Assembly: GCA_965248925.1 (NCBI GenBank)
Contig: CBDFLE010000006.1
Location: 3,584,001-3,648,000 of the forward strand
DNA: 64,000 bases
From: Candidatus Multivoradales bacterium
Lineage (GTDB): Bacteria; Acidobacteriota; Thermoanaerobaculia; Multivoradales; J023
Direction: 5' to 3'
The notes under the pieces were generated by a model, which saw only the letters and a program-made list of their open reading frames with translations, was not told where the DNA came from and did not search any database. Both the position numbers and the translations under genes were made by a program. Shown here one piece after another: positions 29,246-48,710 of this stretch; the stretch's first letter is position 1; the number at the start of each line of letters is the position of its first letter.

Positions 29246-29600
29246 TGCCTATTCCGACGAAACTGACCAGCCATTCCGATCGAAACCGACCACTTGTCGG
29301 AGCGAAGCGACGCTGGCGCTCTCCTCAGTTGTAAGTGTCCACTTTCGCTGTAGCTGGAGCCCTCCTTCCGGCTCTTCTTCTTGATTGATTGTATTCAAAT
29401 AACCCGTCGTCGGGGCTGTGCGTAGCTGTGGGAAACGCAGGTTGGGGGGCAGGGGGGCGTTTTCCAAGCGGTTGTGGGAATCGCAGAGCGATTTCCACAA
29501 CCGCGGCAGCTTCCACAGTCCATCTTGGGTCGGGTCCGGATCGGGCCGCAGGCCCGCTGATGGGTCAGAATCGGCGATCGCTTCAGCATGCTCTTGGATC

Positions 29601-30365: not shown

Positions 30366-31933
30366 GGCGGCGTCTCCTCGCGGCGCGCGGCACTGTAGTA
30401 GCTGGCGCCGCGGACGTTGCGGTGCTCGATCGGCGCCGTCACTTCGGTGGGCTCGGGCGCTGCTTGCTGGTCCAGGCCGCTCTTCAGGATCGACTTCACG
30501 CTCTTGTAGGACAGGCCGTGAATGGCGAGCGCGCGGCGGCACGCAGCCTCCAAACGATTGGCACCATAGGTCTTGCCCAGGCGCATCAGCCCCAGACACG
30601 AGCGAAAGCCGTGCTGAGGATGGGAGCGGTTAAGCATGATGGTCTCCACCAGTTCGGCCGTCGCCTGGCCTGTTTTCGCCGCCCAGCTGATCAGCCGTGT
30701 CGGTGTCCACTCCAGGTACGCCTGGTGCGCTTTGGGCATGTGCTCGCTCTGGGTCGTGTGCCGACCCCGACACCGATTGCGACGATGAGCAGCCACACGC
30801 TTGCCGCGATCGAGCACCTCCACCAGTTGCGCCGTCGCCCGCAGATCGAGCTGCTTCTTGATCAGCTGGTACGGCACACTGTAATAGTGGCCCTCGAACT
30901 CGACGTGGTAGTCCGGGGCAACGCGTACCTTCTTCCATTCGGCAAGCTCGTAGGGCTGGAGCGGCAAAGCACCCAGAGCAGGACGATCGACCTGCTCGAA
31001 CAGCGCTCGGCGCGAGACGCCCAACACCTTCAGCGGACGGTCGTTAAGCTCGACCAGAAGCTTCGCGATGCTCTCGTTGAGCTCTCGCAGGCTGAAGAAC
31101 TGCTGGTTACGCAGCCGGGCCAGAATCCAGCGCTCCACTTGCAATACACCGTTTTCGACCTTCGCCTTGTCTTGGGGCTTCCTCACCCGCGCCGGCACCA
31201 CCGCCACGCCGTAGTGCTCGGCCAACTCCGCGTAGGTGCGATTGATCTCCGGCTCGTAGCGGCACGGGCTGGTCACGCCGCTCTTCAGATTGTCCGGCAC
31301 CACCAGCTCGCTCACCCCGCCCAGAGCCGCGAAGGTCCGCACATGAGAGCCGATCCAGCCCTCCAGGCCCTGGCTCCACGTTGATTCGGCATAGGTGTAG
31401 TTGCTCGCCCCCAGCACCGCCACGAAGATCTGCGCTTCGCGCGCTTTGCCAGTCGCCGGGTCGATCACCCTCACGGTCTGTCCGGCATAGTCGACGAACA
31501 GCTTCTCGCCCGCCCGGTAGGCTTGGCGCAGGCACACATCCAGGCGCCCTTCCCAGATCCGGTACAGCTGACAGAAGCGGCTGAGACCGTAGCCGTCGGG
31601 ATGGTCCTCCCGGTACTCCTGCCACAGCAGCGACAGGGTTACGCCCTTCTTCTTCAGCTCGCCATGCACCTTGGTCCAGTCGGGCAAGGCTCGCTGACCA
31701 CCCCTCCGAAGCGGCTGCGGCCGAGGGTACAGGCGTTGCTCCAGCTCAGCGTCGCTCAAAGCTGCTACTTGCTCCCAGCTCAGGCCTTCAACCTTGGCTC
31801 GCAGCAGGTAGTTGCACACCGTCCCGTGGCCCAGCCGAACCGACCGTCCGATCTGGCGGTGCGACAGGCCATGCTGCCATTTCAGTCTCAGTACCTCGCG
31901 TATCTTGCGCATCGATGTCCTCACTCTCGGCAT
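30359..31933 (-). CDS. istA: IS21 DDE transposase
   Basis: MRKIREVLRLK, FVDYAG, VPDNLKS, DKAKVE. Confidence 0.95.
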   Translation of the reverse strand: MPRVRTSMRKIREVLRLKWQHGLSHRQIGRSVRLGHGTVCNYLLRAKVEGLSWEQVAALSDAELEQRLYPRPQPLRRGGQRALPDWTKVHGELKKKGVTLSLLWQEYREDHPDGYGLSRFCQLYRIWEGRLDVCLRQAYRAGEKLFVDYAGQTVRVIDPATGKAREAQIFVAVLGASNYTYAESTWSQGLEGWIGSHVRTFAALGGVSELVVPDNLKSGVTSPCRYEPEINRTYAELAEHYGVAVVPARVRKPQDKAKVENGVLQVERWILARLRNQQFFSLRELNESIAKLLVELNDRPLKVLGVSRRALFEQVDRPALGALPLQPYELAEWKKVRVAPDYHVEFEGHYYSVPYQLIKKQLDLRATAQLVEVLDRGKRVAAHRRNRCRGRHTTQSEHMPKAHQAYLEWTPTRLISWAAKTGQATAELVETIMLNRSHPQHGFRSCLGLMRLGKTYGANRLEAACRRALAIHGLSYKSVKSILKSGLDQQAAPEPTEVTAPIEHRNVRGASYYSAARREETPPC

Positions 31934-32147
31934 CCAATCCTCCTTTCAAGGAGGCTGGAATACCCCAATTGTGAGGAGCGCGCTACCGTCGAACTCCGCC
32001 GTGGCCAGGATTCCGATCCAATCTGACCACCCATTCCGATCGATCCGGAAAAGTGGTCACTTTCGATCGGAATCGGTGGTCATATTCCGTTGGAATCACT
32101 GGTCACTTTCAATCGGAATCGGTGGTCGAATTCCGTCGGTGCAGGCA

Positions 32148-32610
32148 GGTCCAGGCTGCGGTATTGAATGGCCTCGGCGGCATGCGCTGCCCGAATCTCC
32201 GCCGAACTGTCGAGGTCGGCGATGGTGCGGGATAGCTTGAGGATGCGGCTGAGTGCCCGTGCCGACAGCTTGAGCTTGTCGAAGGCGGTGTCGACCAAGC
32301 GCTGGGCATCGGGCGCTAGCACGCAATGCTGCTCGATGCCGTCGCTCCCCAGGGAGGCATTGACCGGCAGGTCCGTCTGGGAGCCGAATCTACTGCGCTG
32401 GATCTCTCTCGCCTGGCGCACTCTCCACGCTACTTCCCGAGTCCCTTCGGTGGCTTCGCTGCGCAACTCGGCAAGGCTCACCGCGGGTACCTCGACATGC
32501 ATGTCGATGCGGTCGAGCAGCGGCCCTGAGACCCGACTGCGATAGCGCTCGATCATCTGTGGCGAGCATTTGCAGTGATGCCGATCGTCCCCCAAATGCC
32601 CGCACTTGCA
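32148..32610 (-). pseudogene. comM: 3' fragment of ComM/YifB Mg-chelatase-like ATPase (copy 1, end cut by IS21)
   Basis: CKCGHLGD..HCKCS...YRSRVSGPLLDRID...SARALSRILKLSRTIADL. Confidence 0.88.
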
Positions 32611-33119
32611 TGATTGCGGCCCCCTTTTGCCATGTCCAGTTGAGAGGACGTATCCCCAAGATTGCGGGGTATCCGCGAGAACTTGTTACGATTGGTAACC
32701 ACATCAAGAGATGTCGGCTTGATCGTGGTCAGTTGCAGAAAGACGTTGCCCGAACGCTCGGCGTCTGTCTGGGTTCGATAGTAAATTGGGAACATGACAG
32801 GGGCTACCCGGAAGTCCGGTTTTGGCCGGCACTCACGGACTGGCTTGGCTACGATCCAAACCCTGAGCCCGAGAATGTGGCTGAGCTGCTGATGGCTTTG
32901 CGGCGCAGGCTCGGATTTTCGCAGCGCTCTCTCGCCACGGTCATCGACGTGGCACCAGAGACGATTTCGGGATGGGAGCAGCAGGCGCACCGGCCGTCAG
33001 GAAAAGCACGCCGACGACTGAGCGGCTGGATTGAGTCGCTGGAGGTCGGAGACGATCTCGCGAGGTGTGCTGCTCGGGTGGTGGTGCTGTTGCGGGGGCG
33101 GAGTGCCGTGGTGGAGTGA
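32610..33119 (+). CDS. Double-HTH XRE-family regulator (copy 1)
   Basis: IKRCRLDRGQLQKDVARTLGV..SIVNWE and LRRRLGFSQRSLA..IDVAPETISGWE. Confidence 0.75.
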   Translation: MIAAPFCHVQLRGRIPKIAGYPRELVTIGNHIKRCRLDRGQLQKDVARTLGVCLGSIVNWEHDRGYPEVRFWPALTDWLGYDPNPEPENVAELLMALRRRLGFSQRSLATVIDVAPETISGWEQQAHRPSGKARRRLSGWIESLEVGDDLARCAARVVVLLRGRSAVVE

Positions 33120-33456
33120 GCGCTTATTGGTCTTTTGCGAGTTGCGCGAGCAGTGCCCGCCGAATGACCTCGGGATTGGATGTGCGGCTATCGAATGCAC
33201 GCCGCGATTTTGACCATTGATATATGTAGACAATATCAGAATATCGAAAACAAGGAGTTCCCTCGCGTGCAATCTCTGTCATTCAGTGGATCGAGGGGAA
33301 ACGGTTCATTTCCAGCCTGCCAAAATGAACCGTTTGGTCTCTAACATCTTTTCCCATAGCTTGTTTGACGAAACAAAGTCGAGCGGGAACCTGGTGGGCC
33401 TAGGGCCAGTCCAAGCAAGAGAACGAATCTAGAATCTTCCAGAAAGTGAGGTAGCC

Positions 33457-33891
33457 TTGAGAGACAGAATCCCCAGATGTTCGATCCTAAACGCCGCCTG
33501 CCTACTGGCAGTCGCAGTCGCCGCCGCCACCGCCCACGCTCAATGCAACAGCACCCCCATCGCCTCGGGCGACAACGCCGAAGCCGCCTCCGCCCCGATC
33601 CTGATTGATGTCCTGGCCAACGACACCGAGCCCGACGGCGAAGCCCTGACTGTCACCGTCCTCGCCAGCACCTGCCCGGCGAGCACCGAGATCGTGCTCG
33701 ATCTGATCCGATTGACCCCGAACCCGTCGATCGATGCCAACTGCACTTTGACCTACCGCATCGAAGACGAGACCCACCACAGCACCTCGGCCACCGTCGC
33801 CGTCAAGTCCATCGCCGTGCTCTTTGGCGACAACTTTGAGTCTGGCAATGCCAATCAATGGGATAGCACCTGCCCCGGCAGCGGCTGCTGA
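33457..33891 (+). CDS. Small secreted Ig-like (cadherin/Big_9-like) protein (copy 1)
   Basis: Signal peptide AHA-Q, PIASGD..IDVLANDTEPDGE.L, TLTYRIED, tail LFGDNFESG. Confidence 0.75.
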   Translation: MRDRIPRCSILNAACLLAVAVAAATAHAQCNSTPIASGDNAEAASAPILIDVLANDTEPDGEALTVTVLASTCPASTEIVLDLIRLTPNPSIDANCTLTYRIEDETHHSTSATVAVKSIAVLFGDNFESGNANQWDSTCPGSGC

Positions 33892-33905
33892 AGGAGTCCA
33901 AGACT

Positions 33906-36900
33906 ATGCAACAGAAAATTCTCATCGCCTCACTTCTCTACGTTGCCCTCGCCGGGCCGACCGCCGCGCAACAGCCCCAGAGCCACCAGCGGGGCGTCAC
34001 CGCCGACACCGCCTTCCAAGTCGGCGCCATCGATTCGATCAACCTCTTCTCGGGGAATCTGTCGCTCCGCCTGCCCCTCGGCCAGAGCTACCCGGTGGGT
34101 CCCACTCTGAGCTACGGCTTCACCCTGACCTACAACTCCAGCGGCTGGGACTTTGACGACCAACAGAGCTGCACCGAGGGCACGCCGCCCAACCAGATGC
34201 TGGTTTCCTACAACTTGCCGATTCAAGATCTCGATGCGAATTCTGGCTGGGGGTGGCGGGTCAATCTTGGCCAGTTGGTGCGCTCCGAAGGCGGCAATCC
34301 CGCGCCACCCTTCAGCGGGTTTTCCTATTTGAGCCCTGACGGCGGGCAACACGCCTTCCACGATTTCCTCCACCCGGCCCAGAGCGGCACCTACCCGCCC
34401 GCCGGCACCCAGCCCAACACCTGGTTCACCCGCGACAGTACCTACCTGAGAATGCGCTACTACCCATTCGCCTCGAGCCCCTGCGAGACGCCGTCGAATC
34501 TGCTCGACCAGGATTGCCGGACGGTGGAATTCCCAAGTGGTGAGATGCATGAATTCCATAACATCAGCCACACCAGCTTCGATTGGCGGGTGACCAAGAT
34601 GCTCGACCGCTTCGGCCATTGGGTCAAGATAGCCTACGCCTCGGGCGGCGATTGGAGCGTCACCGATTCCGCCAACAGGAGTCATTCCCTCGATTTCACC
34701 GCCGGCCGACTGGAGAAGGTCACCCTCGCCGCTTTCAACAACCAAAGCGCCGTCTACGATCTAGTCTACTCCGGCCCGGTCGACCTGGAGCGCCAAGGCG
34801 CGCAGCCTTCGTGTGTGCCCGAAGGGGACACCCTTTCCGGCGTCCGCCTGCTCGAACGCCTGGTCTTGCCCGACGACTCGTTCTACCAAATGGACTACTA
34901 CCGCACCGACAATCCGGGAGAGAAGCTCTCGGGCGGCATCAAGTTCCTCCGTCTTCCCACGGATGGCGCCTTCGGCTGGCGGTACCAACAGATCGATTTT
35001 CATGCCCAAAGCCCAGATGTGCCCGAGGGCCGGGAGTGGGCCAACATCGGCACCGGCGTGGCCACCAAGTCGACGTTCTTGAAAGACAGCGACTATCCAA
35101 ACTCGCCCCACGGCACCTGGATCTATGACTACGATCCCCAAGGAGTGCTCGGTCCCGGCCAGATCTCCTGCTACCACACGCTCACCTTGACCGACCCGCT
35201 AGGCAACGACACGAAGCACTGGTTTAACTCCGCGGGCGCTAATCGCCAAGGCTTTGGCCTGCCCTTCACCCGCTGCACACCGGGCACCAACGACTACTAC
35301 AACAACAGCCCGCCCTACTTGTCGCAAGAGATCTATCAGGGCTCGGTGGCCAGCGGCACCAAACGCCGCTCGATCTTCCTGGAGTACGAGAACGACGGCC
35401 CGTCCGGCTTCTACGCCGACCGCAACCACCGGATGAAGTACCGCAAAGTCATCTACCACGACGACGGTGACAAGTTCCGCGAGGTCACCCACTCGGACTT
35501 CGATGGCCTGGGGCATTTTCGCACCACCACCACCGGCGGCAACTTCGCCAGTGGCAACGTGCGCGCGAGCGAGACCTTCTACAACCAGAATCGCGGCTCC
35601 TACTTGATCGCCAACAGCGATACCGGCGCCATCGACCCGGCCACCGATTTCGCCATGTTCGGCCAGACCCAGCCCTGGGTGCTAGAGACCTTCAACTCGC
35701 AATCGGTGACCGAGAACGGCGTCACCGAGACCACCGAGTATGACTTTGCGCTGCTGAACGGCTTCCTGCGCAAACGTCGGGTGCTGGCTGGCAGCTCGCG
35801 GCAGTCGAACGACTTACTAAGCATCTTCGTGCAAGCCGGCACTACCGGCTTCGTCGCCGCTGAGTTGCAGTACGGCGGCGACAGCCAGGCGATCAGCACC
35901 GCAAGCCTGGGCAACATCAACCCGGCCCACTCCGGCGCCCTTTACCGCACCAACCACAGCTACCAGTACGGCGTGCTGAGAAACTCCACGGTGGTCAACC
36001 CCTGCGCCACCAGCGAGGTGCTGCTCAAGCTGGCCGACTACGATCTCGACAAAAACACCGGCCTGGTCAAGCGCAGCCGAGACAGCGCCGGGATCAAGAT
36101 CGACTTCCTCTATGACCGGCAGGGCCGCTTGACCCATGAGTTTCCCGAGAGCGAAGCGGTGCGCCGCTACACCTACCGTTTGGCCACCCAGAGCAACTTC
36201 AACCTGATGCCGCTGCTGACCGAAGAGCAGTGCGTCACCACCGCCGCCTGCTCGGGCTCCGGCCTGCTGGCCTACCGCCAGCACACTTTCGACGGCCTCG
36301 GCCGTAGGGTCAAAGAGCAGGTGCAGTTGCCCGGCGGAGTGCGCTGGTACCGCCACATGAGCTTCAACCCACGGGCCTGGAAGACCGCGGAATCGGTGTG
36401 GACCCTCAACGCCACTTCCGACAGCCGCGTCACCAAGTACGAGCAGTACGACAACTTCGGCCGCCCCGGCAGGATCACCCCACCAAGCCAGCCGGCCACA
36501 TTCCTCAGCTACGAGGGCGAACGCACCAAGACGCGGCGGTTCAAAGTGATGCTCGCCTCCGGAGTGCAAGAAGACACCTACAACACCGAGATCTCCGATG
36601 GCCAGGGCCGATTGTTCGAGGTTTGTGAAGGCAGATCGGCGGCCTGGAATGGCAGCTGCAACGCGGGCGGCTTGCTGACTCGCTACGCCTACGACGCCGG
36701 CTCGCGGCTCACCCACGTTTGCCAGAATCGGACTGGATCGACCTGTGGCCAGCAACGCTTCTTCAACTATGACGGTCGCAGCTTCCTGACCTCCGAGACC
36801 CATCCCGAAGTCGGCCCAGTGGGCAACGGCGCCACGACCTATTCCTATGATGCTCGTGGCAGCGTTTTGAGCAAACGCATCGGTGGCTCCACCGAATTCG

Positions 36901-39026
36901 ACCTCGACTACTTCTACGATCCAGCCGGACGCCTGATCCGAGTTGACGAGAGCAACGGTGGCTCGCCGCGCAAGCTCAAGGAGTTCCGCTACGGCCGCAA
37001 GAACGTCGGTGCCGACAAGCGGGCCGGCAAGCTGGTGCAGACCACCCGCCACAATTGGGTGGATCTGGTGAATCCGCTGAACGCCAATCCTGGCTTCCTC
37101 GATGTCCGAATCTCCGAGAGCTTCGTCTACGCGGGTCGTGGCGGCCGGATGTCCGAGCGCCAGACCCGCTATCAGCTCGGCGTCGGTCACTACGCCTTCC
37201 AGAGTGGGTTCTCCTATGACCTGCAAGGCAACCTCGCGACCCTCGACTATCCCGACTGTCTGCACACCAACGACAGCTGCGACCAGGTCAGCCCACCGCG
37301 GCAGGTGAGCTTCGCTTACGACAAAGGCTTCCTCACCGCGGTGCCCGGCTTCGCCTCCAGCCTCAGCTACCAGAGCGGCGGCATGCTGACCCAGATCAGC
37401 CACCAGAGCGGCATCACCGAAACTCGCCAGGTCGATCCCTCCGGCCTCGCCCGGCCCGAGCGCATCTCCACCAACGCCGGCTGGGACACTGGCACCTTCG
37501 ACTACGACGGATCGGGCAACATCCACCGCATCGGCTCGCTGACCTACCGCTATGATCGTTTGCAGCGGCTGGTCAGCGGCGAGGCCAAGGTGGGAAGTAG
37601 CGACCGCCTGCAAACCGCGTCATATGACAACTTCGGCAATCTCACCCAGATGATCACCAACGGCGCCAGCCAGAGCATGAGCCCGAGCAGCAGCACCAAT
37701 CGCCTCGGCTTGAGCGGCACGGTGTACGATGCTGGGGGCAACCTGACCCGCGTGCGTTACAGTAGCTCGGAGATCTACCAGTACACCTACGACGCCGCCA
37801 ACATGATGAAACACCTGCAAAGCAACACAGATCAGGCGAGCGTGTACATCTACAACGCTGATGACGAGCGCATCGTCACCTTCAGCTGCTTCAGCGCCGC
37901 CGGCAGCAGCTGCGTCAGCAGCCCCGCCAGCGAGACCTGGACCTTGCGCGGGCTCGGCAACGAGGTGCTGCGGGTCTTCACCCATCCGCGGGGCGAAAGC
38001 TTCGAGTGGGAGCGGGACTACGTCTACCGGGGTGGACAGCTCCTAGCCTCGATAGACCCGGACTCCAGTGGTGTCGAGGAGACCTTCAGTTTCCATCTTG
38101 ATCATCTCGGCACGCCGCGGCAGGTAACGAAGAGTGGTAGCCAGGTGGCGCTGCACAGCTACTATCCGTTTGGGCAGGAGGCGACCAGCGCTAGCTCAGA
38201 CGAGTTTCAGCTGAAGTTTACCGGGCATGAGCGGGATCAGAACGGGGTGGGGGCGAAGAGCGAGCTGGACTACATGCATGCCAGGCATTGCAGTCCGGTG
38301 GTGGGGAGGTTCTTGGCAGTTGATCCTGTCCGGGGAAAACAGGCGTTGCCTCAGAGCTGGAACCGATTCTCCTATGTCCTGAATAATCCCCTTGCCTATA
38401 CCGATCCAGAAGGAGAGCGGACGGCGGCGCAGCTAGGACAGGCCGGGCAGGACTTGCTCTTCGATCTGACTGAGGAGGCGACGGCCCGCACGGGAGTGGG
38501 TCCGCTTAGTGTTGCTGTCGACACAGCCCTCGGAATGGGTCGAGATCTTGCGAGTGGTGTTCTCGACATCATGAAGGCTGGTGACGGGATTGGCACCGTT
38601 CTTGGGGGCGGAGCGACCGGCGGGGCAGCAGTGCTCGAGATCGGCAAGGATGTTCTCAGAGTCTCTGCGTTGGCTGGGGGCGGAGCGGTTGTTGTTCGCT
38701 CAGCAGCAAAGAAAAGCCTTGTTTCAGGGGGAGAAGCGGCTCTGTCTAAAGCGGCGGGGGCAGCTGACCGCAATGGGCTAACAAAGGCAGGACGGTCTCT
38801 TCAAAAGCATTCGTCCAGACCGGGTAGCGCATTCAATACATCGGCCACACGGGCTAAGGATCTGAACGCTGCGGGCCAGTCCGTTGTCGATGACATTCTT
38901 ACGGCACCTGGGTCGATCCAGAGAACAAACCGCCTCGGGGGTGTCGATGTCGGCCTACCAAACGGCCGAGGTATTCGCTACAACGCGGACGGGTCGTTCC
39001 GGAATTTCTTGGAGCCGAACGGATAG
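33906..39026 (+). CDS. Full-length Rhs/YD-repeat polymorphic toxin 1 (signal peptide; toxin tip CT1)
   Basis: YD repeats, Rhs core FTGHERD..LDYMHAR..GRFLAVDP, NPLAYTDPEG, divergent C-terminus AGRSLQKH...GRGIRY...FLE. Confidence 0.93.
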   Translation: MQQKILIASLLYVALAGPTAAQQPQSHQRGVTADTAFQVGAIDSINLFSGNLSLRLPLGQSYPVGPTLSYGFTLTYNSSGWDFDDQQSCTEGTPPNQMLVSYNLPIQDLDANSGWGWRVNLGQLVRSEGGNPAPPFSGFSYLSPDGGQHAFHDFLHPAQSGTYPPAGTQPNTWFTRDSTYLRMRYYPFASSPCETPSNLLDQDCRTVEFPSGEMHEFHNISHTSFDWRVTKMLDRFGHWVKIAYASGGDWSVTDSANRSHSLDFTAGRLEKVTLAAFNNQSAVYDLVYSGPVDLERQGAQPSCVPEGDTLSGVRLLERLVLPDDSFYQMDYYRTDNPGEKLSGGIKFLRLPTDGAFGWRYQQIDFHAQSPDVPEGREWANIGTGVATKSTFLKDSDYPNSPHGTWIYDYDPQGVLGPGQISCYHTLTLTDPLGNDTKHWFNSAGANRQGFGLPFTRCTPGTNDYYNNSPPYLSQEIYQGSVASGTKRRSIFLEYENDGPSGFYADRNHRMKYRKVIYHDDGDKFREVTHSDFDGLGHFRTTTTGGNFASGNVRASETFYNQNRGSYLIANSDTGAIDPATDFAMFGQTQPWVLETFNSQSVTENGVTETTEYDFALLNGFLRKRRVLAGSSRQSNDLLSIFVQAGTTGFVAAELQYGGDSQAISTASLGNINPAHSGALYRTNHSYQYGVLRNSTVVNPCATSEVLLKLADYDLDKNTGLVKRSRDSAGIKIDFLYDRQGRLTHEFPESEAVRRYTYRLATQSNFNLMPLLTEEQCVTTAACSGSGLLAYRQHTFDGLGRRVKEQVQLPGGVRWYRHMSFNPRAWKTAESVWTLNATSDSRVTKYEQYDNFGRPGRITPPSQPATFLSYEGERTKTRRFKVMLASGVQEDTYNTEISDGQGRLFEVCEGRSAAWNGSCNAGGLLTRYAYDAGSRLTHVCQNRTGSTCGQQRFFNYDGRSFLTSETHPEVGPVGNGATTYSYDARGSVLSKRIGGSTEFDLDYFYDPAGRLIRVDESNGGSPRKLKEFRYGRKNVGADKRAGKLVQTTRHNWVDLVNPLNANPGFLDVRISESFVYAGRGGRMSERQTRYQLGVGHYAFQSGFSYDLQGNLATLDYPDCLHTNDSCDQVSPPRQVSFAYDKGFLTAVPGFASSLSYQSGGMLTQISHQSGITETRQVDPSGLARPERISTNAGWDTGTFDYDGSGNIHRIGSLTYRYDRLQRLVSGEAKVGSSDRLQTASYDNFGNLTQMITNGASQSMSPSSSTNRLGLSGTVYDAGGNLTRVRYSSSEIYQYTYDAANMMKHLQSNTDQASVYIYNADDERIVTFSCFSAAGSSCVSSPASETWTLRGLGNEVLRVFTHPRGESFEWERDYVYRGGQLLASIDPDSSGVEETFSFHLDHLGTPRQVTKSGSQVALHSYYPFGQEATSASSDEFQLKFTGHERDQNGVGAKSELDYMHARHCSPVVGRFLAVDPVRGKQALPQSWNRFSYVLNNPLAYTDPEGERTAAQLGQAGQDLLFDLTEEATARTGVGPLSVAVDTALGMGRDLASGVLDIMKAGDGIGTVLGGGATGGAAVLEIGKDVLRVSALAGGGAVVVRSAAKKSLVSGGEAALSKAAGAADRNGLTKAGRSLQKHSSRPGSAFNTSATRAKDLNAAGQSVVDDILTAPGSIQRTNRLGGVDVGLPNGRGIRYNADGSFRNFLEPNG

Positions 39027-39032
39027 CTGGCC

Positions 39033-39275
39033 ATGGAAAGCGGTGATTTTGAAGTTCAGGTAATGGATGATCCAGACCACGAGGATCTCATTGCCGAGGT
39101 TCTCTACAAGGGGGAGTTTTGTTTCTTGATAAGCCAGGAGACAGGTTTTCGGAATCTGGAGATTCAGGTCCAGAGTCGGCAATCAGGCCAACCATGGCGG
39201 TTCAGTGTGGCTGAGATGGAGGACTCGATCAAACGAGCCAAGAAGCGCCTTTGGGAGCTGCAGCGTGTCGAGTGA
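39033..39275 (+). CDS. Putative immunity protein for CT1 (copy 1)
   Basis: 80-aa acidic ORF 6 bp after the rhs stop. Confidence 0.75.
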   Translation: MESGDFEVQVMDDPDHEDLIAEVLYKGEFCFLISQETGFRNLEIQVQSRQSGQPWRFSVAEMEDSIKRAKKRLWELQRVE

Positions 39276-39313
39276 TTGACACCGTCCTGGCCTAGTACAA
39301 GCCGCTTCGCATC

Positions 39314-39333
39314 AGCCCGGCTCCGGCCGGGCT
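39314..39333. terminator. Hairpin between convergent immunity and XRE genes
   Basis: agcccgg-ctccgg-ccgggct followed by ttcgt; a related hairpin lies at 58375-58399. Confidence 0.55.
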
Positions 39334-39348
39334 TTCGTGCGTCTGGCT

Positions 39349-39711
39349 TCAGGTCGTGGCGTAGGACTGCCGGGTTCGCGCATCGCGGATGAGTCCGTCG
39401 ACCAAGTAGAGGATCCGGTCGCGATCTTCTCCAGAGATCTCTTCGAGGGCCTTCCAGCGGTCGAGCATCTCGCGGTCCTGGAGAGCGTGCGGCAAGGAGT
39501 TCTCGTTGACGAGGTAATCGACGGTGACCCCAAAGATGCTGGCCAGCTTGCGTGCAACCTCGACCGAAGGTGTCATGGCCCCTCGCTCGTAGCGCCCAAT
39601 GATGGTTCCCGAAGTACCGAGCTTCTCGCCAAGTACAGGTTGGGACCACCCCTTGCTCTTCCTCAGCTCGTGAATTCGGTGTCCGAGAGGGCTGTCGGAT
39701 CGCTTTGCCAT
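39349..39711 (-). CDS. XRE-family repressor (copy 1)
   Basis: IHELRKSKGWSQ..LGEKLG....IGRYERG..TPS.....LA..FGVTVDYL. Confidence 0.9.
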   Translation of the reverse strand: MAKRSDSPLGHRIHELRKSKGWSQPVLGEKLGTSGTIIGRYERGAMTPSVEVARKLASIFGVTVDYLVNENSLPHALQDREMLDRWKALEEISGEDRDRILYLVDGLIRDARTRQSYATT

Positions 39712-39796
39712 GACCTAATCATCCTGAAATCAACGGTTTTGGCTCCTAACACATCACATTAGCGGACGTTTTCGTGCTGGTCAAGACGGCAGGGGC

Positions 39797-39826
39797 TTGA
39801 CAGTTAGTAGACGAATCGGTCATCAT
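39797..39826 (+). promoter_or_regulatory. Putative sigma70 promoter for the symE-primase-recombinase operon
   Basis: TTGACA-N18-CATCAT in the divergent xre/symE gap. Confidence 0.45.
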
Positions 39827-39868
39827 CGGGACGAAAAGGTTCTGATGAAGAAAATCGAGGAGAGCAAA

Positions 39869-40081
39869 ATGATCGACCGCACCCTGACCATCTCCAGCCT
39901 CTACCCGTCCTCATCGGCTCCCTCGGGCTGGCGCTCGGTGCGCCAGGCTCGTCGGCAGCGGGCAGTGCCCTTTCTGCGGCTATCGGGCCGGTGGCTGGAA
40001 TCGGCGGGCTTCGAGATCGGCTCGAAGGTGCGGGTAGTGGTCGAGGCAGATCGCCTGGTGGTGGAGCCGGCGGATGTGTGA
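39869..40081 (+). CDS. SymE-family protein 1
   Basis: VPFLRLSGRWLESAGFEIGSKVRVVVEADRLVV matches the SymE pattern; RBS gaggag. Confidence 0.82.
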   Translation: MIDRTLTISSLYPSSSAPSGWRSVRQARRQRAVPFLRLSGRWLESAGFEIGSKVRVVVEADRLVVEPADV

Positions 40082-40295
40082 GCAGAGGCTTCGGGTGTCG
40101 AGCTTCTACCGCCCCGGTTGGCCGGCGGCACCTGCTCTGGAGCGGCCGTCGCCGCTCCTGCTGCTGGTGGGCTCGTGGCTGGCTGAGGCGGGGTTTGCTC
40201 CTGGGGATGAGGTGCGGGTGTCGGGGGGGGATGGGCGGTTGCAGGTCGTTCGGCGGGAGCTGGGCGAGAATACGCCGGCTTGGGGAGGGCGGTAG
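40074..40295 (+). CDS. SymE-family protein 2 (divergent)
   Basis: PLLLLVGSWLAEAGFAPGDEVRVSGGDGRLQV; overlaps the first symE stop. Confidence 0.65.
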   Translation: MCEQRLRVSSFYRPGWPAAPALERPSPLLLLVGSWLAEAGFAPGDEVRVSGGDGRLQVVRRELGENTPAWGGR

Positions 40296-40297
40296 GG

Positions 40298-43200
40298 GTG
40301 AGCAGGATTCCCGAAGCTGAGGTTGAGCGGCTAAAGCGAGAGGTGTCGGTGGAGCGCCTGGCCTTGGCCCGGGGGGTGAAGCTGAAGCGGCATGGAGCGG
40401 ACCTACTGGGGCTGTGCCCGTTTCACGACGACCGCGAGCCGTCGCTGGTGATCTCGCCGAAGAAGAATCTGTGGCACTGCCTGGGCGCCTGCCAGGCAGG
40501 CGGGTCGGTGATCGATTGGGTGATGCGGGATCGCGGGGTGTCGTTTCGCCACGCGGTGGAGCTGCTGCGCTCGGACCTGCCGGCGGCGGTCGCAGCGGCT
40601 CCGGCCACGGCTCCGGCTCTGCCGTCGCCGGTGGTGGCGGAGGCTGAGGATGCGGAGCTGCTCGGCCAGGTCGTCGGCTACTACCACGAAGCCTTGAAGG
40701 AGAGCCCGGAGGCGCTGGCTTACCTGGAGAGTCGGGGTTTGAAGCATCCGGAGATGATCGAGCATTTCCGGCTTGGCTTTGCCAATCGGACGCTGGGCTA
40801 CCGGCTGCCGCCGAAGCAGGTGAAGGCGGGCAAGGAGATGCGGGGTCGATTGCAGAAGCTCGGTGTGCTGCGCAAGTCGGGGCATGAGCACTTCAATGGC
40901 TCGATCGTCTTTCCGGTCTTCGATTCCACAGGCCAGGTGGCGGAGATGTACGGGCGCAAGATCACGCCGAATCTCCGGAAAGGAACGCCGCTGCATCTCT
41001 ACCTGCCGGGGCTGCACCGGGGCATCTTCAATCCGGAAGCTCTGGTGGCCTCGACCGAGATCATTCTCTGCGAGTCGCTGATCGACGCCTTGACCTTCTG
41101 GTGCGCGGGCTACCGCAACGTCACCAGCGCCTACGGCATCCAGGGCTTCACCGACGAGATGCTAGTGGCCTTTGGCGGTCATGGCACCCGCCGAGTGCTG
41201 ATTGCCTACGACCGGGACGACGCCGGCGAGAAGGCGGCCGGGAAGCTGGCCGAGCAGCTGATGGGTGCCGGGATCGACTGCTACCGAATCCACTTTCCGC
41301 GCGGCATGGACGCCAACGAGTACGCGCTGAAGGTGACCCCCGCCTCGAAGTCGCTGGGGGTGGCCATCCGCCGAGCACAGTGGCTCGGCAAAGGCAAGGC
41401 GCCCGAGGTGAAGCTGGGTTTTGAGCCCGTAGAGGGCGAGGTGGCGCCGCCAGCCGAGCCAACGACATCGCCACACACAGCCGCAGAGGCGGTATTGGTG
41501 CCGCCAGTCCCGGCCGAAGCCTCTCCGCTACCGCCGCCGCCACCGTCGGATGTGCCGGCCGAGGTGCGTGAGCAGGAGGTGGTGCTGTCGCTCGGCGATC
41601 GCCGCTATCGGATTCGCGGCCTGCCGAAGAATCTGGCCTACGACGTGCTCAAGGTCAACGTCCTGGCGTCGCAGGGTGACAGCTTCCACGTCGATACCTT
41701 CGATCTCTACTCGGCACGGCCGCGCTCGGTGTTTCAGCGAGCGGCGGCCGCTGAGCTGGGGGTCGAGGAGCAGGTGGTCAAGAAGGATCTGGGCAAGGTG
41801 CTCTTGAAGCTCGAGGAGCTGCAAGACGAGCAGATCCGCTCGGCGCTTGAGCCGCAGTCGGTGGCCATCGCGCTGTCGGAGGAAGAGAAGGAAGCGGCGC
41901 TTGAGCTGCTGCGCTCGCCGGAGCTGCTCCAGCGCATCCTTGAGGACTTCGAGCGCTGCGGGGTGGTGGGCGAGGAGGTCAACAAGCTGATGGGCTACCT
42001 GGCGGCTACCTCGCGCTTTCTGGAGCGCCCTTTGGCGGTGGTGGTGCAATCGAGCTCAGCGGCCGGCAAGTCGGCGCTGATGGAGGCGGTGCTGGCGCTG
42101 ATGCCGGGTGAGGAGCAAGTGAAGTACTCGGCGATGACCGGGCAATCGCTGTTCTACATGGGCGAGACGAACCTGCAGCACAAGATCTTGGCGATCGTCG
42201 AGGAGGAAGGCGCCGAGCGAGCGAGCTATGCGCTCAAGCTCCTGCAGTCGGAAGGTGAGCTGACGATTGCCTCGACTGGCAAGGACGCTTCAACGGGCAA
42301 GCTGGTGACGCACGAGTACCACGTCGAAGGGCCGGTGATGATCTTCTTGACGACCACGGCGATCGACATCGATGAGGAGCTGCTCAACCGCTGCCTGGTG
42401 CTGTCGGTAGACGAGGCGCGGGAGCAGACGCGGGCGATTCACCGGCTGCAGCGCGAGCGGCGGACCCTCGAAGGGCTGCTATCACGCACCAGGCGCGACG
42501 GGGTGACGGCATTACACCAGAACGCACAGCGGCTGCTGCGGCCGCTGGCCGTGGTCAATCCATTCGCTCCGGAGCTGACCTTTCTCGATACCCAGATCAG
42601 GACGCGGCGGGATCACGAGAAGTACCTGACGCTGATCGATGTGATTGCTCTCCTGCACCAGCACCAGCGGGAGGTGAAGCGGGCGGTGGTCGACGGGCGA
42701 GAGGTCGAGTACGTGGAGGTGGTGGCCACGGACATCGAGACCGCCAACCGCCTGGCGCACGAGGTGCTGGGGCGCTCGCTCGATGAGCTACCACCGCAGA
42801 CGCGGCGCTTGCTGGGGCTGATCGACGCGATGGTCAGCGAAGCCTGCGAAGCGCTGGCGATGGATCGCCCGGACTACCGCTTCAGCCGGCGAGCGGTGCG
42901 CGAGCACACCGGCTGGGGCAACACGCAGCTGAAGCTGCACCTGCGCCGTCTCGAGGAGCTGGAGTATCTGCTGGTGCATCAGGGTGGGCGGGGGCAGAGC
43001 TTCGTCTACGAGCTGGTCTACGTGGCCGGCGACGAGTCCGAGCGGCCGCGACTGCCGGGGCTGATCGAGGTCGAAGCACTCCGGTACGACGGAAAGAAGT
43101 CGGGCCAGGCTGGCGAGAAGTCGGGGCCAAGTCGGCCCCAAGTCGGGGGGGTATCGGGGGGTGGTCGGGGTGCAGTTTCCCCAGCAGAATCAACAGCTTC

Positions 43201-43318
43201 GGCCGGAAATCGTGGGGTTTCGTCGAAAAACGCACATAGGGGGGTGCAAGAAAACGGCTCGTCATATCGTAAATCAACACGTCGTACCCACGACTCAGAG
43301 ACGGCCGAGAGTGCGTGA
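40298..43318 (+). CDS. CHC2 zinc-finger/TOPRIM primase fused to a P-loop NTPase (primase-helicase)
   Basis: GLCPFHDD..WHCLGAC, CESLIDAL, AYDRDDAG, SSSAAGKS Walker A. Confidence 0.88.
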   Translation: MSRIPEAEVERLKREVSVERLALARGVKLKRHGADLLGLCPFHDDREPSLVISPKKNLWHCLGACQAGGSVIDWVMRDRGVSFRHAVELLRSDLPAAVAAAPATAPALPSPVVAEAEDAELLGQVVGYYHEALKESPEALAYLESRGLKHPEMIEHFRLGFANRTLGYRLPPKQVKAGKEMRGRLQKLGVLRKSGHEHFNGSIVFPVFDSTGQVAEMYGRKITPNLRKGTPLHLYLPGLHRGIFNPEALVASTEIILCESLIDALTFWCAGYRNVTSAYGIQGFTDEMLVAFGGHGTRRVLIAYDRDDAGEKAAGKLAEQLMGAGIDCYRIHFPRGMDANEYALKVTPASKSLGVAIRRAQWLGKGKAPEVKLGFEPVEGEVAPPAEPTTSPHTAAEAVLVPPVPAEASPLPPPPPSDVPAEVREQEVVLSLGDRRYRIRGLPKNLAYDVLKVNVLASQGDSFHVDTFDLYSARPRSVFQRAAAAELGVEEQVVKKDLGKVLLKLEELQDEQIRSALEPQSVAIALSEEEKEAALELLRSPELLQRILEDFERCGVVGEEVNKLMGYLAATSRFLERPLAVVVQSSSAAGKSALMEAVLALMPGEEQVKYSAMTGQSLFYMGETNLQHKILAIVEEEGAERASYALKLLQSEGELTIASTGKDASTGKLVTHEYHVEGPVMIFLTTTAIDIDEELLNRCLVLSVDEAREQTRAIHRLQRERRTLEGLLSRTRRDGVTALHQNAQRLLRPLAVVNPFAPELTFLDTQIRTRRDHEKYLTLIDVIALLHQHQREVKRAVVDGREVEYVEVVATDIETANRLAHEVLGRSLDELPPQTRRLLGLIDAMVSEACEALAMDRPDYRFSRRAVREHTGWGNTQLKLHLRRLEELEYLLVHQGGRGQSFVYELVYVAGDESERPRLPGLIEVEALRYDGKKSGQAGEKSGPSRPQVGGVSGGGRGAVSPAESTASAGNRGVSSKNAHRGVQENGSSYRKSTRRTHDSETAESA
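43097..43170 (+). repeat. Helically phased TCGG repeats at the primase 3' end
   Basis: TCGG at 43121, 43132, 43143, 43154, 43165 (11-bp period) plus 43100. Confidence 0.75.
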
Positions 43319-44391
43319 TGGCGCGCCGTGGTCAGCGCAAGATCCGCCTCTTGCCGGGTGATCCTACTGATCCCAGAGGTTTCATGGTGATGGTTAGCAA
43401 GTACCTGGAGTGGATGGCGGTCAAGAGCTACTCACCGCACACCATCGAGGCCCGCCACCTCTACCTCAGCCACCTCATCATCTGGTGTGAGCAGCGCGGG
43501 GTAACGCGGCCGGCGGAGGTGACCAAGCCGATCCTGGAGCGCTACGCGCAGTGGCTCTACCACTACCGCAAGCCCGCGAACGGACGACCCTTGAGCTTTC
43601 GCACGCAGCTCACGCGGCTAGTGCCGGTGCGCGCCTTCTTCAAGTGGGCGGCACGGGCCAATTACTTGCTCTACAACCCGGCCTCGGAGCTAGAGCTGCC
43701 GAAGCCAGAGCAGCGGCTGCCGGCAGCGGTGCTCACTGCCGCAGAAGCCGACCAGGTGCTCAACCAGCCGGACACGATGGACCCGCTTGGCTTGCGGGAC
43801 AGAGCGATCCTCGAAGTCTTCTACTCGACCGGCATACGCCGGGCCGAGATGATCGGGCTGGGGCGCTACGATCTCGACGTCAACCGGGAAACGCTGATGG
43901 TGCGTCAGGGCAAGGGACGCAAGGACCGGATGATCCCCCTCGGCGAGCGGGCGCTGGCCTGGGTCGACCGCTACGTCACCGAGGTACGGCCCCATCTGGT
44001 GGTCGAGCCGGACGATGGAGCGCTCTTTCTCACCAACGATGGAATGTCCTTCACGACGTCATGGATGACCCCGCTGGTGCGCGGTTACGTGGTGGCCGCC
44101 GATATCGGCAAACCGGGCGCCTGCCACCTCTTTCGCCACACCATGGCGACGCTGATGCTCGAAGGTGGGGCGGATATCCGCTTTGTCCAGCAGATGCTCG
44201 GCCACGCCAGGCTAGAGACGACGCAGATCTACACTCAGGTCTCGATCCGCAAGCTGAGAGAGATTCACGCCACAACGCATCCGGGGGCGAAGCTGGGGAG
44301 CCGGGTGGTGCAGTCGGCGGAAGAAGACGGTAGCAATGAAGTGACCGCCGAGGACTTACTCGATGCGGTGGAGGAAGAAGCGGAGGACTGA
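43318..44391 (+). CDS. XerC/D-like tyrosine recombinase
   Basis: RDRAILEVFYSTGIR, GKGRKDR, HLFRH, LGH...TTQIY catalytic set. Confidence 0.93.
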   Translation: MARRGQRKIRLLPGDPTDPRGFMVMVSKYLEWMAVKSYSPHTIEARHLYLSHLIIWCEQRGVTRPAEVTKPILERYAQWLYHYRKPANGRPLSFRTQLTRLVPVRAFFKWAARANYLLYNPASELELPKPEQRLPAAVLTAAEADQVLNQPDTMDPLGLRDRAILEVFYSTGIRRAEMIGLGRYDLDVNRETLMVRQGKGRKDRMIPLGERALAWVDRYVTEVRPHLVVEPDDGALFLTNDGMSFTTSWMTPLVRGYVVAADIGKPGACHLFRHTMATLMLEGGADIRFVQQMLGHARLETTQIYTQVSIRKLREIHATTHPGAKLGSRVVQSAEEDGSNEVTAEDLLDAVEEEAED

Positions 44392-44806
44392 CCCTGCCCC
44401 CCACCCGAAGCGGTCCGGGTCTCCGTGCTCGGGCTGCGGCCGGCCTGGCGGCCGTCCTCCGCTCCTGCGCGCGCAGCCCTCGGCTGTGTTTGTTTTCTCA
44501 CCCCTGCCCGCCCCGGTCCGAGCGTCCGTGATCCACCGCCCGTACCCTCCGGTCACCGGCCCAGAGCGGGGCTTCAAGTAGTCCAAGAAAAGAGTCTTCG
44601 AAAGCTCACCCCAAGCTCCGCCGAGGCGTGTGTCCCTCCGGTCGCTACGCTCCCTGCGGGCACGGGCCAGCCGCTGCGGCAAGCCGGGCGCCCGCCGGCC
44701 CCCACCCCTGGCCCTCCGTCGGTCACCCGGCTTGCAATCTCCGCTGTCCGATAGTGCGCCACTATCCGACCTGGCCCTCACAAGCCCCGGCTCCGGGCCT
44801 GCGGCC

Positions 44807-44832
44807 TTTCCATAACGCGTGCATTATGGAAA
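44807..44832. other. dif/cer-like inverted-repeat site
   Basis: TTTCCATAA-cgcgtgca-TTATGGAAA; a second palindrome gtccgatagtg-cgc-cactatccgac at 44746-44770. Confidence 0.6.
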
Positions 44833-47757: not shown

Positions 47758-47763
47758 CTGGCC

Positions 47764-48687: not shown

Positions 48688-48710
48688 CAGAGAAATAGGT
48701 GCCAGGCACA

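Follow-up and report, generated by a model that had tools for sequence, protein, structure and literature searches.

The window analysed here, a stretch of DNA of 64,000 nucleotides, contains four copies of the 3′ part of an rhs gene. According to self-BLAST, these belong to the genes Rhs1 and Rhs2 and to the cassettes OrphA and OrphB (Table 1). RHS/YD repeats were detected in both genes (PF05593, E 1.5e-19 for Rhs1 and 2.6e-18 for Rhs2), and TIGR01643 was matched as well. The Rhs-associated core domain TIGR03696 is located at aa 1419–1503 of Rhs1 (58.1 bits, cutoff 32.5), and it also precedes the variable tip in Rhs2, OrphA and OrphB. The nucleotide homology among the paralogues ends at 38315–38326 and gives way to variable C-terminal tips, of which 40 clusters were counted among 59 core ends. 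With repeats, core domain and variable tip all present, Rhs1 fits the description of an Rhs/YD-repeat polymorphic toxin, as judged from its sequence.

Table 1. Coordinates of the features of the rhs region within the window
Feature	Position	Strand	Description
IS21-family element	29246–32147	-	IstA 30359–31933, IstB 29601–30599; Pfam IstB_IS21, rve, Mu-transpos_C_2
comM-like C-terminal fragment, module A	32080–32595	-	
Upstream module A, Rhs1 unit	32148–33403	.	Corresponds to 49672–50927 of the Rhs2 unit, 99.9% identity; Pfam
HTH gene, module A	32559–33119	+	
Small Big_9/cadherin-like ORF	33457–33891	+	Just 5′ of Rhs1; PF17963, E 1.7e-12
Rhs1	33906–39026	+	Intact open frame, 1706 aa, chimeric
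seg1	36866–37507	+	642 bp; Rhs1, Rhs2 and OrphA identical (four-way alignment)
seg2	37508–38064	+	No differences between Rhs1 and Rhs2; OrphA differs at 48 sites
Exchange interval	38065–38077	+	13-bp identity block ccagtggtgtcga; aa 1387–1391 of Rhs1
OrphA-lineage part of the Rhs1 locus	38078–39956	+	Core end, tipA, 80-aa ORF, XRE, start of SymE-like ORF; corresponds to OrphA 46809–48687
XRE gene, Rhs1 locus	39349–39711	-	Pfam
SymE-like ORFs of the element region	39797–40081, 40074–40295		Pfam
Primase-integrase element	39858–45596	+	Pfam; conserved right terminus ends at 45596
Primase of the element	40280–43318		Pfam
Tyrosine integrase of the element	43315–44391		PF00589, E 2.8e-36
OrphA	45597–48687	+	5′-truncated rhs cassette: core from the 36866-equivalent, tipA, ORF, XRE, truncated SymE-like ORF
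Q	48688–49671	.	First part of the repeated [Q-A-rhs] unit; before Rhs2 and three C5 units
IS5-like insertion	50928–52424	+	Rhs2 unit only; transposase 51010–52401; CTAG duplication
Rhs2	52931–57967	+	1678 aa; source lineage of the Rhs1 core; own tip from 57103
OrphB	59013–61037	+	Second orphan cassette; in-frame stop 59847–59849

Neither tipA nor tip2 has a match in Pfam or NCBIfam; the Atlas clusters nearest to tipA are alternative C-termini of CdiA and MafB (scores 0.90–0.94), which serve as a lead only. An ORF of 80 aa (39033–39275) starts 7 nt past the stop codon of Rhs1. It has no family match in Pfam or NCBIfam and is the putative immunity gene of tipA. The first 300 aa of Rhs1 gave no Pfam match; by eye, the N-terminus resembles a signal peptide. 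No T6SS genes were found among the 24 ORFs of the window scanned with Pfam.

OrphA is 98.4% identical to the region 36866–39956 of Rhs1 in self-BLAST, and the tips of the two are 100% identical at the protein level. The two regions form direct repeats of 3.09 kb around the 5.6-kb primase-integrase element; OrphA is bordered by the right terminus of the element on the left and by Q on the right. OrphA is located downstream of Rhs1 only, and not of Rhs2. Q is missing from the Rhs1 unit. The Q ORF (48784–49833, minus strand) and 44628–45233 gave no matches in Pfam and NCBIfam. The left side of the Rhs1 unit is truncated by a rearrangement scar of the IS21-family element, which is present in the genome in approximately 25 copies with >99% identity; the ends of the copy in the window are defined, and it shows no target-site duplication. 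The second orphan, OrphB, is approximately 90–91% identical to the other copies in the core (59014–60408).

The four-way alignment of the rhs 3′ copies contains 81 informative sites within the shared core 36866–38316. In seg1 the three sequences Rhs1, Rhs2 and OrphA cannot be told apart, and the next nearest paralogues differ from them at 15–18 sites. At the 48 sites of seg2, Rhs1 carries the Rhs2 alleles. From 38078 to 38316, Rhs1 agrees with OrphA and Rhs2 differs at 33 of 33 informative sites, and there is no site at which Rhs1 alone differs. This 48|33 partition has no exceptions; its probability by chance is 3.7e-23, and the observed value of the max-chi-square test was reached in none of 20000 permutations. 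Sites of the Rhs2 type extend to 38064 and those of the OrphA type set in at 38078, which places the switch within 38065–38077. The first-pass annotation had described Rhs1 as a chimera with a crossover in exactly these 13 bp, and the single clean switch seen in the alignment of the four copies with their informative SNPs confirms both statements.

The comparison with further paralogues indicates which of the copies is the recombinant. Over 32148–38064, the Rhs1 and Rhs2 units differ by 7 mismatches in 5917 bp, and, among 11 paralogues, the bases 38052A and 38064T are shared by Rhs1 and Rhs2 alone. On the other side, the Rhs1 locus differs from the OrphA lineage by 1 mismatch in 1892 bp up to 39956, at 38660. 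Rhs1 shows no differences to Rhs2 in seg2 and none to OrphA in seg3, whereas OrphA differs from all other paralogues at 38–63 sites in seg2 and at 25–35 sites in seg3. Since OrphA stands apart from all paralogues to the left and to the right of the switch, it is OrphA that preserves the native linkage; Rhs1, by comparison with 11 paralogues, jumps between lineages and is identified as the recombinant. We are confident that Rhs1 is a genuine, recent, in-frame recombinant of an Rhs2-lineage core with an OrphA-lineage cassette. The exchange interval lies approximately 30 aa N-terminal of the Rhs-associated core domain in Rhs1, which implies that the core-end domain, tipA, the probable immunity gene and the XRE gene travel together. 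Both sources persist, and the process must thus have copied DNA and not only deleted it. The assumption that parent, donor and product all lie in the window holds as far as both source lineages are found there. OrphA itself, however, is a mosaic and no untouched donor: over its first 642 bp it does not differ from Rhs1 and Rhs2, and a second event is needed to account for this.

Read evidence for the junction was taken from the contigs of four runs, which all stem from a single sample, probably that used for the assembly; run X1, with a share of words of 0.07, belongs to another study and was left out. In all four runs a contig of 104 letters begins exactly at 38065 and matches the unitig predicted from the assembly. 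In a k=31 graph this unitig would be 121 letters long if the hybrid 31-mer were absent, and the contig start at 38065 thus implies that the hybrid 31-mer is present in the reads. The 30-mer 38065–38094 occurs only twice in the genome, in Rhs1 and in OrphA. The 47-letter hybrid contig is not among the contigs listed, so the junction is supported indirectly, through a contig boundary; bins without cover in X3–X5 (for example 37781–37889) carry no information. For the tipA contig, a depth of 46.4 was measured in X2 and of 34.4 in X5, whereas the Rhs1-specific right junction reached 21.5 and 16.9, respectively. This junction (39956|39957) is bridged by contigs in X2, X3 and X5. An assembly or polishing artefact, in which the merging or mis-polishing of Rhs2 and OrphA reads produced a spurious hybrid or a spurious additional copy, is scarcely credible. 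Repeats of 3–6 kb at >99% identity do assemble poorly, the data resemble community or enrichment data with 9–30 million contigs per run, and a single sample stands behind all runs. On the other hand, the 13-bp shared interval is shorter than any usual k-mer, the contig start in four of four runs demands two left contexts for a 30-mer restricted to Rhs1 and OrphA, and the tipA depth is double that of the bridged junction. The suspicion that Rhs1 is an assembler chimera, its two allele sets never meeting in a single read, is at odds with the hybrid 31-mer.

The element between Rhs1 and OrphA has approximately 15 relatives in the genome at 81–89% identity. For the primase, at least 564 relatives were counted. 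Its conserved terminus is found in 14 of 14 genome matches of the element end, the window's own included. The family is tied to Rhs cassettes in 13 of 14 genome copies and in 43 of 75 loci from other phyla, and 13 of the 14 genome elements sit between two rhs core ends. All 11 orphans of the typical elements begin at one same base, and the lineage switches of their main genes coincide with the element-end junction, with the first differences at +2 to +8. The single rhs position of these 11 copies may reflect shared descent instead of recurrent insertion. The element of the window and one C4 copy adjoin other rhs positions, that of the window being the 36866-equivalent. In five arrays every cassette unit carries a tyrosine integrase and a primase, and the same gene order is found again across phyla. 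Exact terminal overlaps of 28–127 bp were observed in 5 of 50 whole-contig loci from other genomes, which fits circles and collapsed tandem units equally well. The tips of the C5 array follow the order B B A A A C C D, and the 3′ end of its main gene (core end, tip and downstream DNA) recurs in the first orphan unit with 100% identity over 4516 bp. Such a repeat is a hint that cassette units are commonly duplicated in tandem or inserted as multimers here.

We tentatively favour, at somewhat less than even chances, a route in which OrphA and Rhs2 recombined and the excised circle was re-inserted beside the element. Homologous recombination between the direct repeats OrphA and Rhs2, with pairing helped by their 642 identical bases, would have released a circle with the hybrid gene and the content [core end-tipA-ORF-XRE-truncated SymE-like ORF-Q-upstream module-Rhs2 core]. 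Circles of this orphan by main gene type are proposed in the accessible part of Jackson 2009 (PMC2935791). The circle would then have entered a sister chromosome, its 99-bp remnant of the element left end recombining with the left end of the intact element, and an IS21-linked rearrangement would have removed the Q copy together with whatever stood upstream. The Rhs1 unit equals 49672–57089 plus 46796–48687 without Q and the later IS5, that is, a circular permutation of the interval between the exchange points (46796–57089) minus the later insertion and Q, which would be leftmost after opening of the circle. The identity of Rhs1 and OrphA stops at 39956, exactly where the homology of OrphA to the element left end stops; both identities are equally young, with 7 mismatches in 5917 bp and 1 in 1892 bp; and the IS21-family element lacks a target duplication. 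These observations argue for the circle. Several others weigh against it. The homology for re-insertion is at most 99 bp. A former neighbour on the upstream side of the element, of which nothing is seen, has to be assumed, as has a deletion; an additional, earlier conversion is needed for the 642-bp identity of OrphA to Rhs1 and Rhs2; the exchange took place in a 13-bp block despite nearby blocks of up to 86 bp; and the read evidence is indirect and from one sample. No circle, empty site or intermediate was seen in the contigs, which cannot reveal rare forms. Observed are the mosaic, the junction from the reads, the depth of tipA corresponding to two copies and the borders of the segments; the circle, its re-entry and the sequence of steps are deductions. 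Two simpler schemes were rejected: if OrphA and Rhs2 had simply undergone unequal sister exchange, the chimera would lie between OrphA on the left and Rhs2 on the right and be followed by Q, contrary to the order observed, and a single Campbell insertion of a cassette circle at 38065–38077 is insufficient, as it predicts different tips to the left and right of the element. A gene conversion from OrphA to Rhs1 with both ends in homology has become less likely, as the identity reaches the last base of OrphA homology (39956) and no sequence is left in which the right end could be resolved. The ancestral locus was not recovered when 40 related genomes were searched with 36866–39956, the best identity being 65–70%.

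In-situ tip replacement and homogenisation of the core stand beside the circle as alternatives. In the former, which we consider unlikely but not negligible, the element was preceded by a resident Rhs1 (a sister duplicate of the Rhs2 unit); tandem duplication or multimer insertion of the cassette unit [core fragment-tipA-ORF-element] followed, recombination of the main core with the first cassette copy at 38065–38077 deleted the old tip, and the second element copy was later cut to 99 bp. The canonical array order in the genome (main gene, tip, element, orphan), with 13 of 14 elements between two core ends, agrees with this, as do the common neighbouring duplicated units of the C5 array (tips B B A A A C C D); the identical 4516-bp repeat of the C5 main 3′ end favours such a replacement over the circle. 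Duplication followed by main-orphan recombination is also what Koskiniemi 2014 (PMC3967940) proposes in the part consulted. More events are required, the truncated second element must end exactly where Q starts, and it has to be explained separately why the Rhs1 and Rhs2 units are 99.9% identical over 5.9 kb; moreover, no trace of a replaced, older Rhs1 tip is found in the window. It is less probable still that the tip is old and the core new, i.e. that Rhs1 had a native OrphA-like core with tipA, that OrphA is a duplicate of its 3′ part, and that a gene-conversion tract from Rhs2 overwrote Rhs1 up to 38064. The tipA of Rhs1 is contiguous with an intact element while the OrphA copy ends inside the SymE-like ORF, the paralogue cores are mosaic throughout (between C5_702k and Rhs1 there are 4 differences in seg2 but 18 in seg1), and a tract could plausibly stall where divergence climbs from 8.6% to approximately 14%. 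Against this, the tract must span at least 0.56 kb and probably 5.9 kb with the upstream genes, the origin of OrphA needs a separate duplication and its first 642 bp another conversion, and its end exactly at the start of Q is unexplained. Very improbable, finally, is a site-specific joint, with the 13-bp interval as the crossover core of the element's tyrosine integrase and the junction as attL instead of a product of homologous recombination. The lineage switches at the element-end junctions of typical elements (first differences at +2 to +8), the shared start base of 11 of 11 typical orphans and the exchange in a short block rather than the longest one would suit it. The typical junction, however, corresponds to approximately 38125–38128 in Rhs1, 50–60 nt downstream of the interval, the window's own element adjoins rhs at the 36866-equivalent, and the 13-mer and the typical junction, compared by eye only, show no similarity.

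Rhs and other polymorphic toxins diversify through tip swaps, a step that is seldom seen in natural genomes, and a vehicle that moves tips between genomes has been hypothetical since 2009. The window holds a clear case from nature, mapped to within 13 bp, in which both source lineages survive and the exchanged unit begins shortly before the core domain. The first-pass annotation regarded the locus as a snapshot of toxin-tip replacement. The in-frame chimera with Rhs1 as the recombinant bears this out in part, but with no trace of a replaced tip that history is too simple: instead of having its tip swapped, Rhs1 may have arisen as a new gene copy or had its core overwritten. The recombination in Rhs1 is an event of the expected kind, but it occurred in an array built by a mobile element, and this element may be the mover of such cassettes. 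Primase-integrase elements could be, at chances that we put just short of even, the vehicles of Rhs C-terminal displacement: self-replicating, integrating units of approximately 7–9 kb with a core-end fragment, a tip and an immunity gene, which would insert at one set position immediately ahead of the Rhs-associated core domain, provide the resident toxin gene with a new tip and shift the old one downstream. If so, the Rhs1/OrphA repeat would be a by-product of element traffic. The family is spread over Acidobacteriota, a number of proteobacterial classes and further phyla. Searches of openly accessible full texts brought to light no account of primase-integrase units with Rhs tips; a paper on plastomes of Bryopsidales proved unrelated, with rhs and primase in different species. 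Some known integrative elements enter a gene at its 3′ end and bring a substitute for that end with them, and P4-like satellites combine an integrase with a primase. The elements described here resemble them in the tyrosine integrase next to a large primase, the conserved terminus at the 3′ part of the target and the tandem accretion at one site, and differ in that the new 3′ end would specify another toxin and insertion would thus alter the gene product. A 2026 paper in Current Biology that is cited for Rhs poly-immunity arrays and Xer-type recombination may bear on the novelty of these units.

The analogy drawn earlier with main/orphan recombination in Salmonella is valid in part. As in the consulted part of the report on Salmonella Typhimurium LT2 (Koskiniemi 2014, PMC3967940), homologous recombination within the core fuses the tip of a 5′-truncated orphan in frame to a full-length core, and duplication retains copies of the ancestral arrangement. 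In that case the shared stretch measures 522 bp at 95% and recombination was witnessed in evolving cultures, whereas here the event is inferred from a single assembly. The Salmonella model places the orphan immediately 3′ of its main gene, whose own tip and immunity gene are lost from the recombined copy; in the window the order is reversed, with the core source Rhs2 following OrphA, both sources are kept, a primase-integrase element separates product and orphan, and the orphan is itself a mosaic. Integrase genes near Rhs arrays were also noted in the bee-gut Snodgrassella and Gilliamella, with the suggestion that they aid Rhs capture; the sections consulted of that work (Steele et al. 2017, PMC5727410) describe no primase, unit structure, junctions or insertion site, unlike the present analysis. 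The strings of dissociated tips with core fragments of variable length correspond to those in the accessible part of Jackson 2009 (PMC2935791), as does the circle of orphan core and main core with homologous re-insertion that is proposed here. That model predicts that the old tip is shunted downstream, while the orphan downstream of Rhs1 carries the same tip as Rhs1. Beyond Jackson 2009 (PMC2935791), as far as its accessible part goes, each cassette unit of the five arrays comes with its own tyrosine integrase and primase, and the location of the event inside such arrays, whose gene order recurs across phyla, makes the movement of tips directly testable.

The window contains two full-length rhs genes, Rhs1 and Rhs2, and two orphan cassettes, the 5′-truncated OrphA and OrphB. 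Self-BLAST of the window gives 99.2% identity between 33400-38316 and 52425-57342, and 99.9% between 32145-33403 and 49669-50927. OrphA aligns without gaps to positions 36866-39956 of Rhs1 (98.4%), and OrphB, the fourth copy, shares ~90-91% with the other three. The OrphB tip gives a weak match to eCIS_core (PF13699), and a 62-bp repeat of 87% identity adjoins the 45-bp repeat on both sides of this cassette. A small Big_9-domain ORF lies upstream of each full-length gene. The N-termini of both proteins (Rhs1 33906-33980) resemble Sec signal peptides, judged by eye; neither PAAR nor any other Pfam domain was found in their first 300 aa. The genome (7.98 Mb, 6 contigs) carries 11 copies of the Rhs1-type subfamily. 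Genome-wide there are 59 Rhs core ends with tips in 40 clusters (≥60% identity), which makes for a very large toxin repertoire.

Features of the rhs region and locations of the element family (window positions unless a contig is named)
Feature	Position	Properties
IS21 element	29246-32147	2.9 kb
comM-like C-terminal fragments (Mg_chelatase_C)	32080-32595, 49652-50119 (-)	
Big_9-domain ORF of Rhs1	33457-33891	
Rhs1	33906-39026	1706 aa; full-length; RHS/YD repeats; Rhs-associated core domain aa 1419-1503
XRE gene	39349-39711	divergent orientation; adjoins SymE_toxin-domain ORFs
SymE_toxin-domain ORFs	39797-40081, 40074-40295	E 1.1e-13, 1.4e-7; adjacent, left end of element
Primase-integrase element	39858-45596	
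Other locations of the element family	C5:921000-986000; C6:3492401-3519638; C6:1342569-1350565; C4:68000-79000	
OrphA	45597-48687	
Q, start of repeated unit before Rhs2	48688-49671	
IS5-like insertion	50928-52424	in Rhs2 unit
Rhs2	52931-57967	1678 aa; full-length; RHS/YD repeats; Rhs-associated core domain aa 1419-1519
45-bp exact repeat bracketing OrphB cassette	58939-58983, 61566-61610	
OrphB cassette	59013-61037	stop codon in frame at 59847-59849
OrphB, aligned copy	59014-60408	

In a four-way alignment of the rhs 3′ copies, Rhs1, Rhs2 and OrphA show no differences over 36866-37507. Over 37508-38064 OrphA stands apart at 48 sites, at all of which Rhs1 equals Rhs2; over 38078-38316 Rhs2 stands apart at 33 informative sites, at all of which Rhs1 equals OrphA. 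Past 38316 the Rhs2 tip is unrelated. There are no exceptions to this pattern and no sites private to Rhs1. The probability of such a perfect partition is 3.7e-23, and the observed max-chi-square value was reached in none of 20000 permutations. The first-pass annotation had described Rhs1 as a chimera with a crossover within 13 bp and had proposed this alignment as a check. The faultless 48 | 33 partition bears out the chimera, and the same 13-mer, 38065-38077, is recovered as the gap between the final Rhs2-type and the earliest OrphA-type informative site. At the protein level the joint lies at aa 1387-1391, ~30 aa ahead of the Rhs-associated core domain.

OrphA differs from other paralogues at 38-63 sites left of the interval and at 25-35 sites right of it. 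As it belongs to a separate lineage left and right of the switch, its linkage is native, and the change of lineage in Rhs1 marks Rhs1, on these alignments, as the recombinant copy. On the left, one C5 copy has only 4 differences from Rhs1; on the right, Rhs2 differs from all copies at 23-40 sites. Among the 11 copies, the alleles 38052A and 38064T occur in Rhs1 and Rhs2 only, so the Rhs1 core beside the joint belongs specifically to the Rhs2 lineage. Rhs1 and Rhs2 have 7 mismatches over 32148-38064, only two within the ORF; the other five, grouped before the start codon at 33711-33748 (38 bp) within the Big_9 ORF, probably reflect a short patch converted from another paralogue. Rhs1 and OrphA have 1 mismatch (38660) over 38065-39956. 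Both identities are evidently very young.

The stretch is contained in four sequencing runs of one sample; the assembly was probably made from them, and they are thus not independent. The read sets are k=31-derived contigs, which were placed at ≥99% likeness on 36800-40050. A 104-letter contig covering exactly 38065-38168 is found in all four runs. The assembly predicts this unitig together with a 47-letter Rhs1-specific one (38048-38094), and the latter is not among the contigs listed for this placement, which makes the read support for the joint indirect. Only Rhs1 and OrphA contain the 30-mer 38065-38094; a contig start at 38065 therefore requires two preceding letters in the reads, the G of OrphA and the T of Rhs1, so a hybrid 31-mer linking 38064T with 38078G, 38084C and 38090T must be present. 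An assembler chimera, in which no read would carry both allele sets, had been named in the first-pass annotation as what would refute its claim. Taking the Rhs1 3′ part out of the k-mer set yields a single 121-letter unitig on the OrphA path, at odds with the 104-letter contig of all four runs, and an artefact is highly improbable. Contig depths agree with a genuine additional copy: the contig of tipA, the toxin region common to Rhs1 and OrphA, reaches 46.4 in read set X2, where the junction piece found only in Rhs1 (39927-40050) has 21.5; in X5 the two depths are 34.4 and 16.9. A single X3 contig spans from 38286 past 39956 into the element, and a contig loose end at 39956 corresponds to the OrphA|Q continuation.

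Positions 36866-39956 of Rhs1 and OrphA form 3091-bp direct repeats (period 8731 bp) on either side of a 5.6-kb element, which carries genes for a 1012-aa primase and a tyrosine integrase besides two SymE-like ORFs. The repeat stops at 39956, within the first SymE-like ORF and 99 bp past the start of element-family homology, which means that OrphA holds a cut-off remnant of the element left end, followed directly by Q. Three C5 units identify Q as the true start of a repeated unit of Q, upstream module and rhs. The OrphA module ends exactly at the Q start. In the C5 units (C5:710092, C5:701482, C5:687904) partial tandem repeats of the opening 13-31 bases of Q lie ahead of this start. The Q start (48688-48720) looks like a recombination hotspot or an att-like site at the unit boundary. 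A comM-like fragment is present in every unit, which suggests that accretion of islands at a comM-type site gave rise to the units. The first 642 bp of OrphA are identical to both Rhs1 and Rhs2, and the closest paralogues after these have 15-18 differences. OrphA is thus evidently a mosaic itself, and another recent event is needed. What looks like the left end of the Rhs1 unit is just the edge of an IS21 element (~25 genome copies, >99% identity) without a target-site duplication, which marks a rearrangement scar; at least one other copy has a duplication (GTGAGAG). The IS5-like insertion in the Rhs2 unit, absent from Rhs1, is recent; it has a CTAG duplication and is 100% identical to other copies (~15 in the genome at >99%).

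Thirteen of the 14 integrases in the genome with ≥77% aa identity to that of the window have an Rhs core end on either side, both on the same strand; the fourteenth, C4:257251, has only a weak upstream core-end match. They form arrays that repeat every ~7.85 kb in the order core end::tip, small ORFs, primase, integrase. All 14 element-end matches, the window's own included, show one conserved terminus followed by rhs coding sequence, and eleven abut the same rhs base (~38125-38128 by Rhs1 numbering). The window's element abuts the 36866-equivalent, and one C4 copy abuts another rhs family. Main genes of the other rhs family that belong to different cassette lineages share identical sequence over 80-600 bp before the junction and show their first difference at +2 to +8 from it. 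A crossover by homologous recombination cannot fall on the outermost edge of homology; the pattern thus suggests site-specific insertion, though the copies are not fully independent. At least 564 primase relatives exist outside the genome. From these, 75 loci (L022-L096) with 55-76% identity were kept, nearest in Acidobacteriota and also from several proteobacterial classes and others, in MAGs and isolates. The integrase immediately follows the primase in 66 of them. A Rhs core end lies within the fetched flank in at least 43, a lower bound since many of the contigs are just 2-9 kb long, and both features occur together in 42. Core-end matches lie on the primase strand in 94 of 96 cases. The gene order Rhs core end, primase, integrase, Rhs core-end fragment recurs across several phyla. 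Exact terminal overlaps in 5 of 50 whole-contig loci (L025, L036, L039, L047, L054; 7.1-8.7 kb) fit circles and collapsed tandem units equally.

Any history of Rhs1 requires one homologous exchange between an Rhs2-lineage core and an OrphA-lineage cassette at 38065-38077, and, because both sources persist, a copying step. The Rhs1 unit equals exactly 49672-57089 plus 46796-48687, a circular permutation of the interval between the exchange points, less Q and IS5. We tentatively favour a route, somewhat short of an even chance, in which direct-repeat recombination between OrphA and Rhs2 would excise a circle that re-enters the sister chromosome via the 99-bp remnant of the element left end. Re-entry would place the hybrid gene immediately upstream of the element, stop the OrphA identity at 39956 and leave Q leftmost in the insert, beside the present IS21 scar. 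In-situ replacement, once the cassette unit had undergone tandem duplication or multimer insertion, is less likely, though a serious competitor. It is favoured by the C5 array, where the tip order is B B A A A C C D and the main gene 3′ end with downstream DNA (4516 bp) is 100% identical in the first orphan unit. This repeat of core end, tip and downstream DNA occupies reverse-complement coordinates 5847-10362 and 16295-20810 of C5:970000-985000; an IS21 copy sits between the two. Homogenisation of the core, with Rhs2 as donor of a long conversion tract, is unlikely, and a joint made by the integrase is more doubtful still. Among 40 genomes searched for the ancestral state no close relative was found, the best showing 65-70% identity.

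The initial reading of toxin-tip replacement, with parent, donor and product in one window, holds in that Rhs1 joins an Rhs2-lineage core to an OrphA-lineage cassette and both sources remain. Its history is too simple, given the mosaic OrphA, the element between the repeats and the IS21 scar. A literature search over the main texts of openly accessible papers returned no description of primase-integrase units bearing Rhs tips. The consulted part of Steele 2017 (PMC5727410) reports Rhs-linked integrase-like genes in bee-gut bacteria and gives no mechanism there, and the discussion of a 2026 preprint places Xer-type systems beside Rhs poly-immunity arrays. As an event the Rhs1 joint is clean, though to be expected; the element setting offers a testable candidate vehicle for Rhs tip exchange. 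Tip exchange via core recombination is established by Koskiniemi 2014 (PMC3967940) and Jackson 2009 (PMC2935791), and our favoured route is the same as the circle step of the latter model. The chimera is a new example of this known process, and the element context around it is a new variation.
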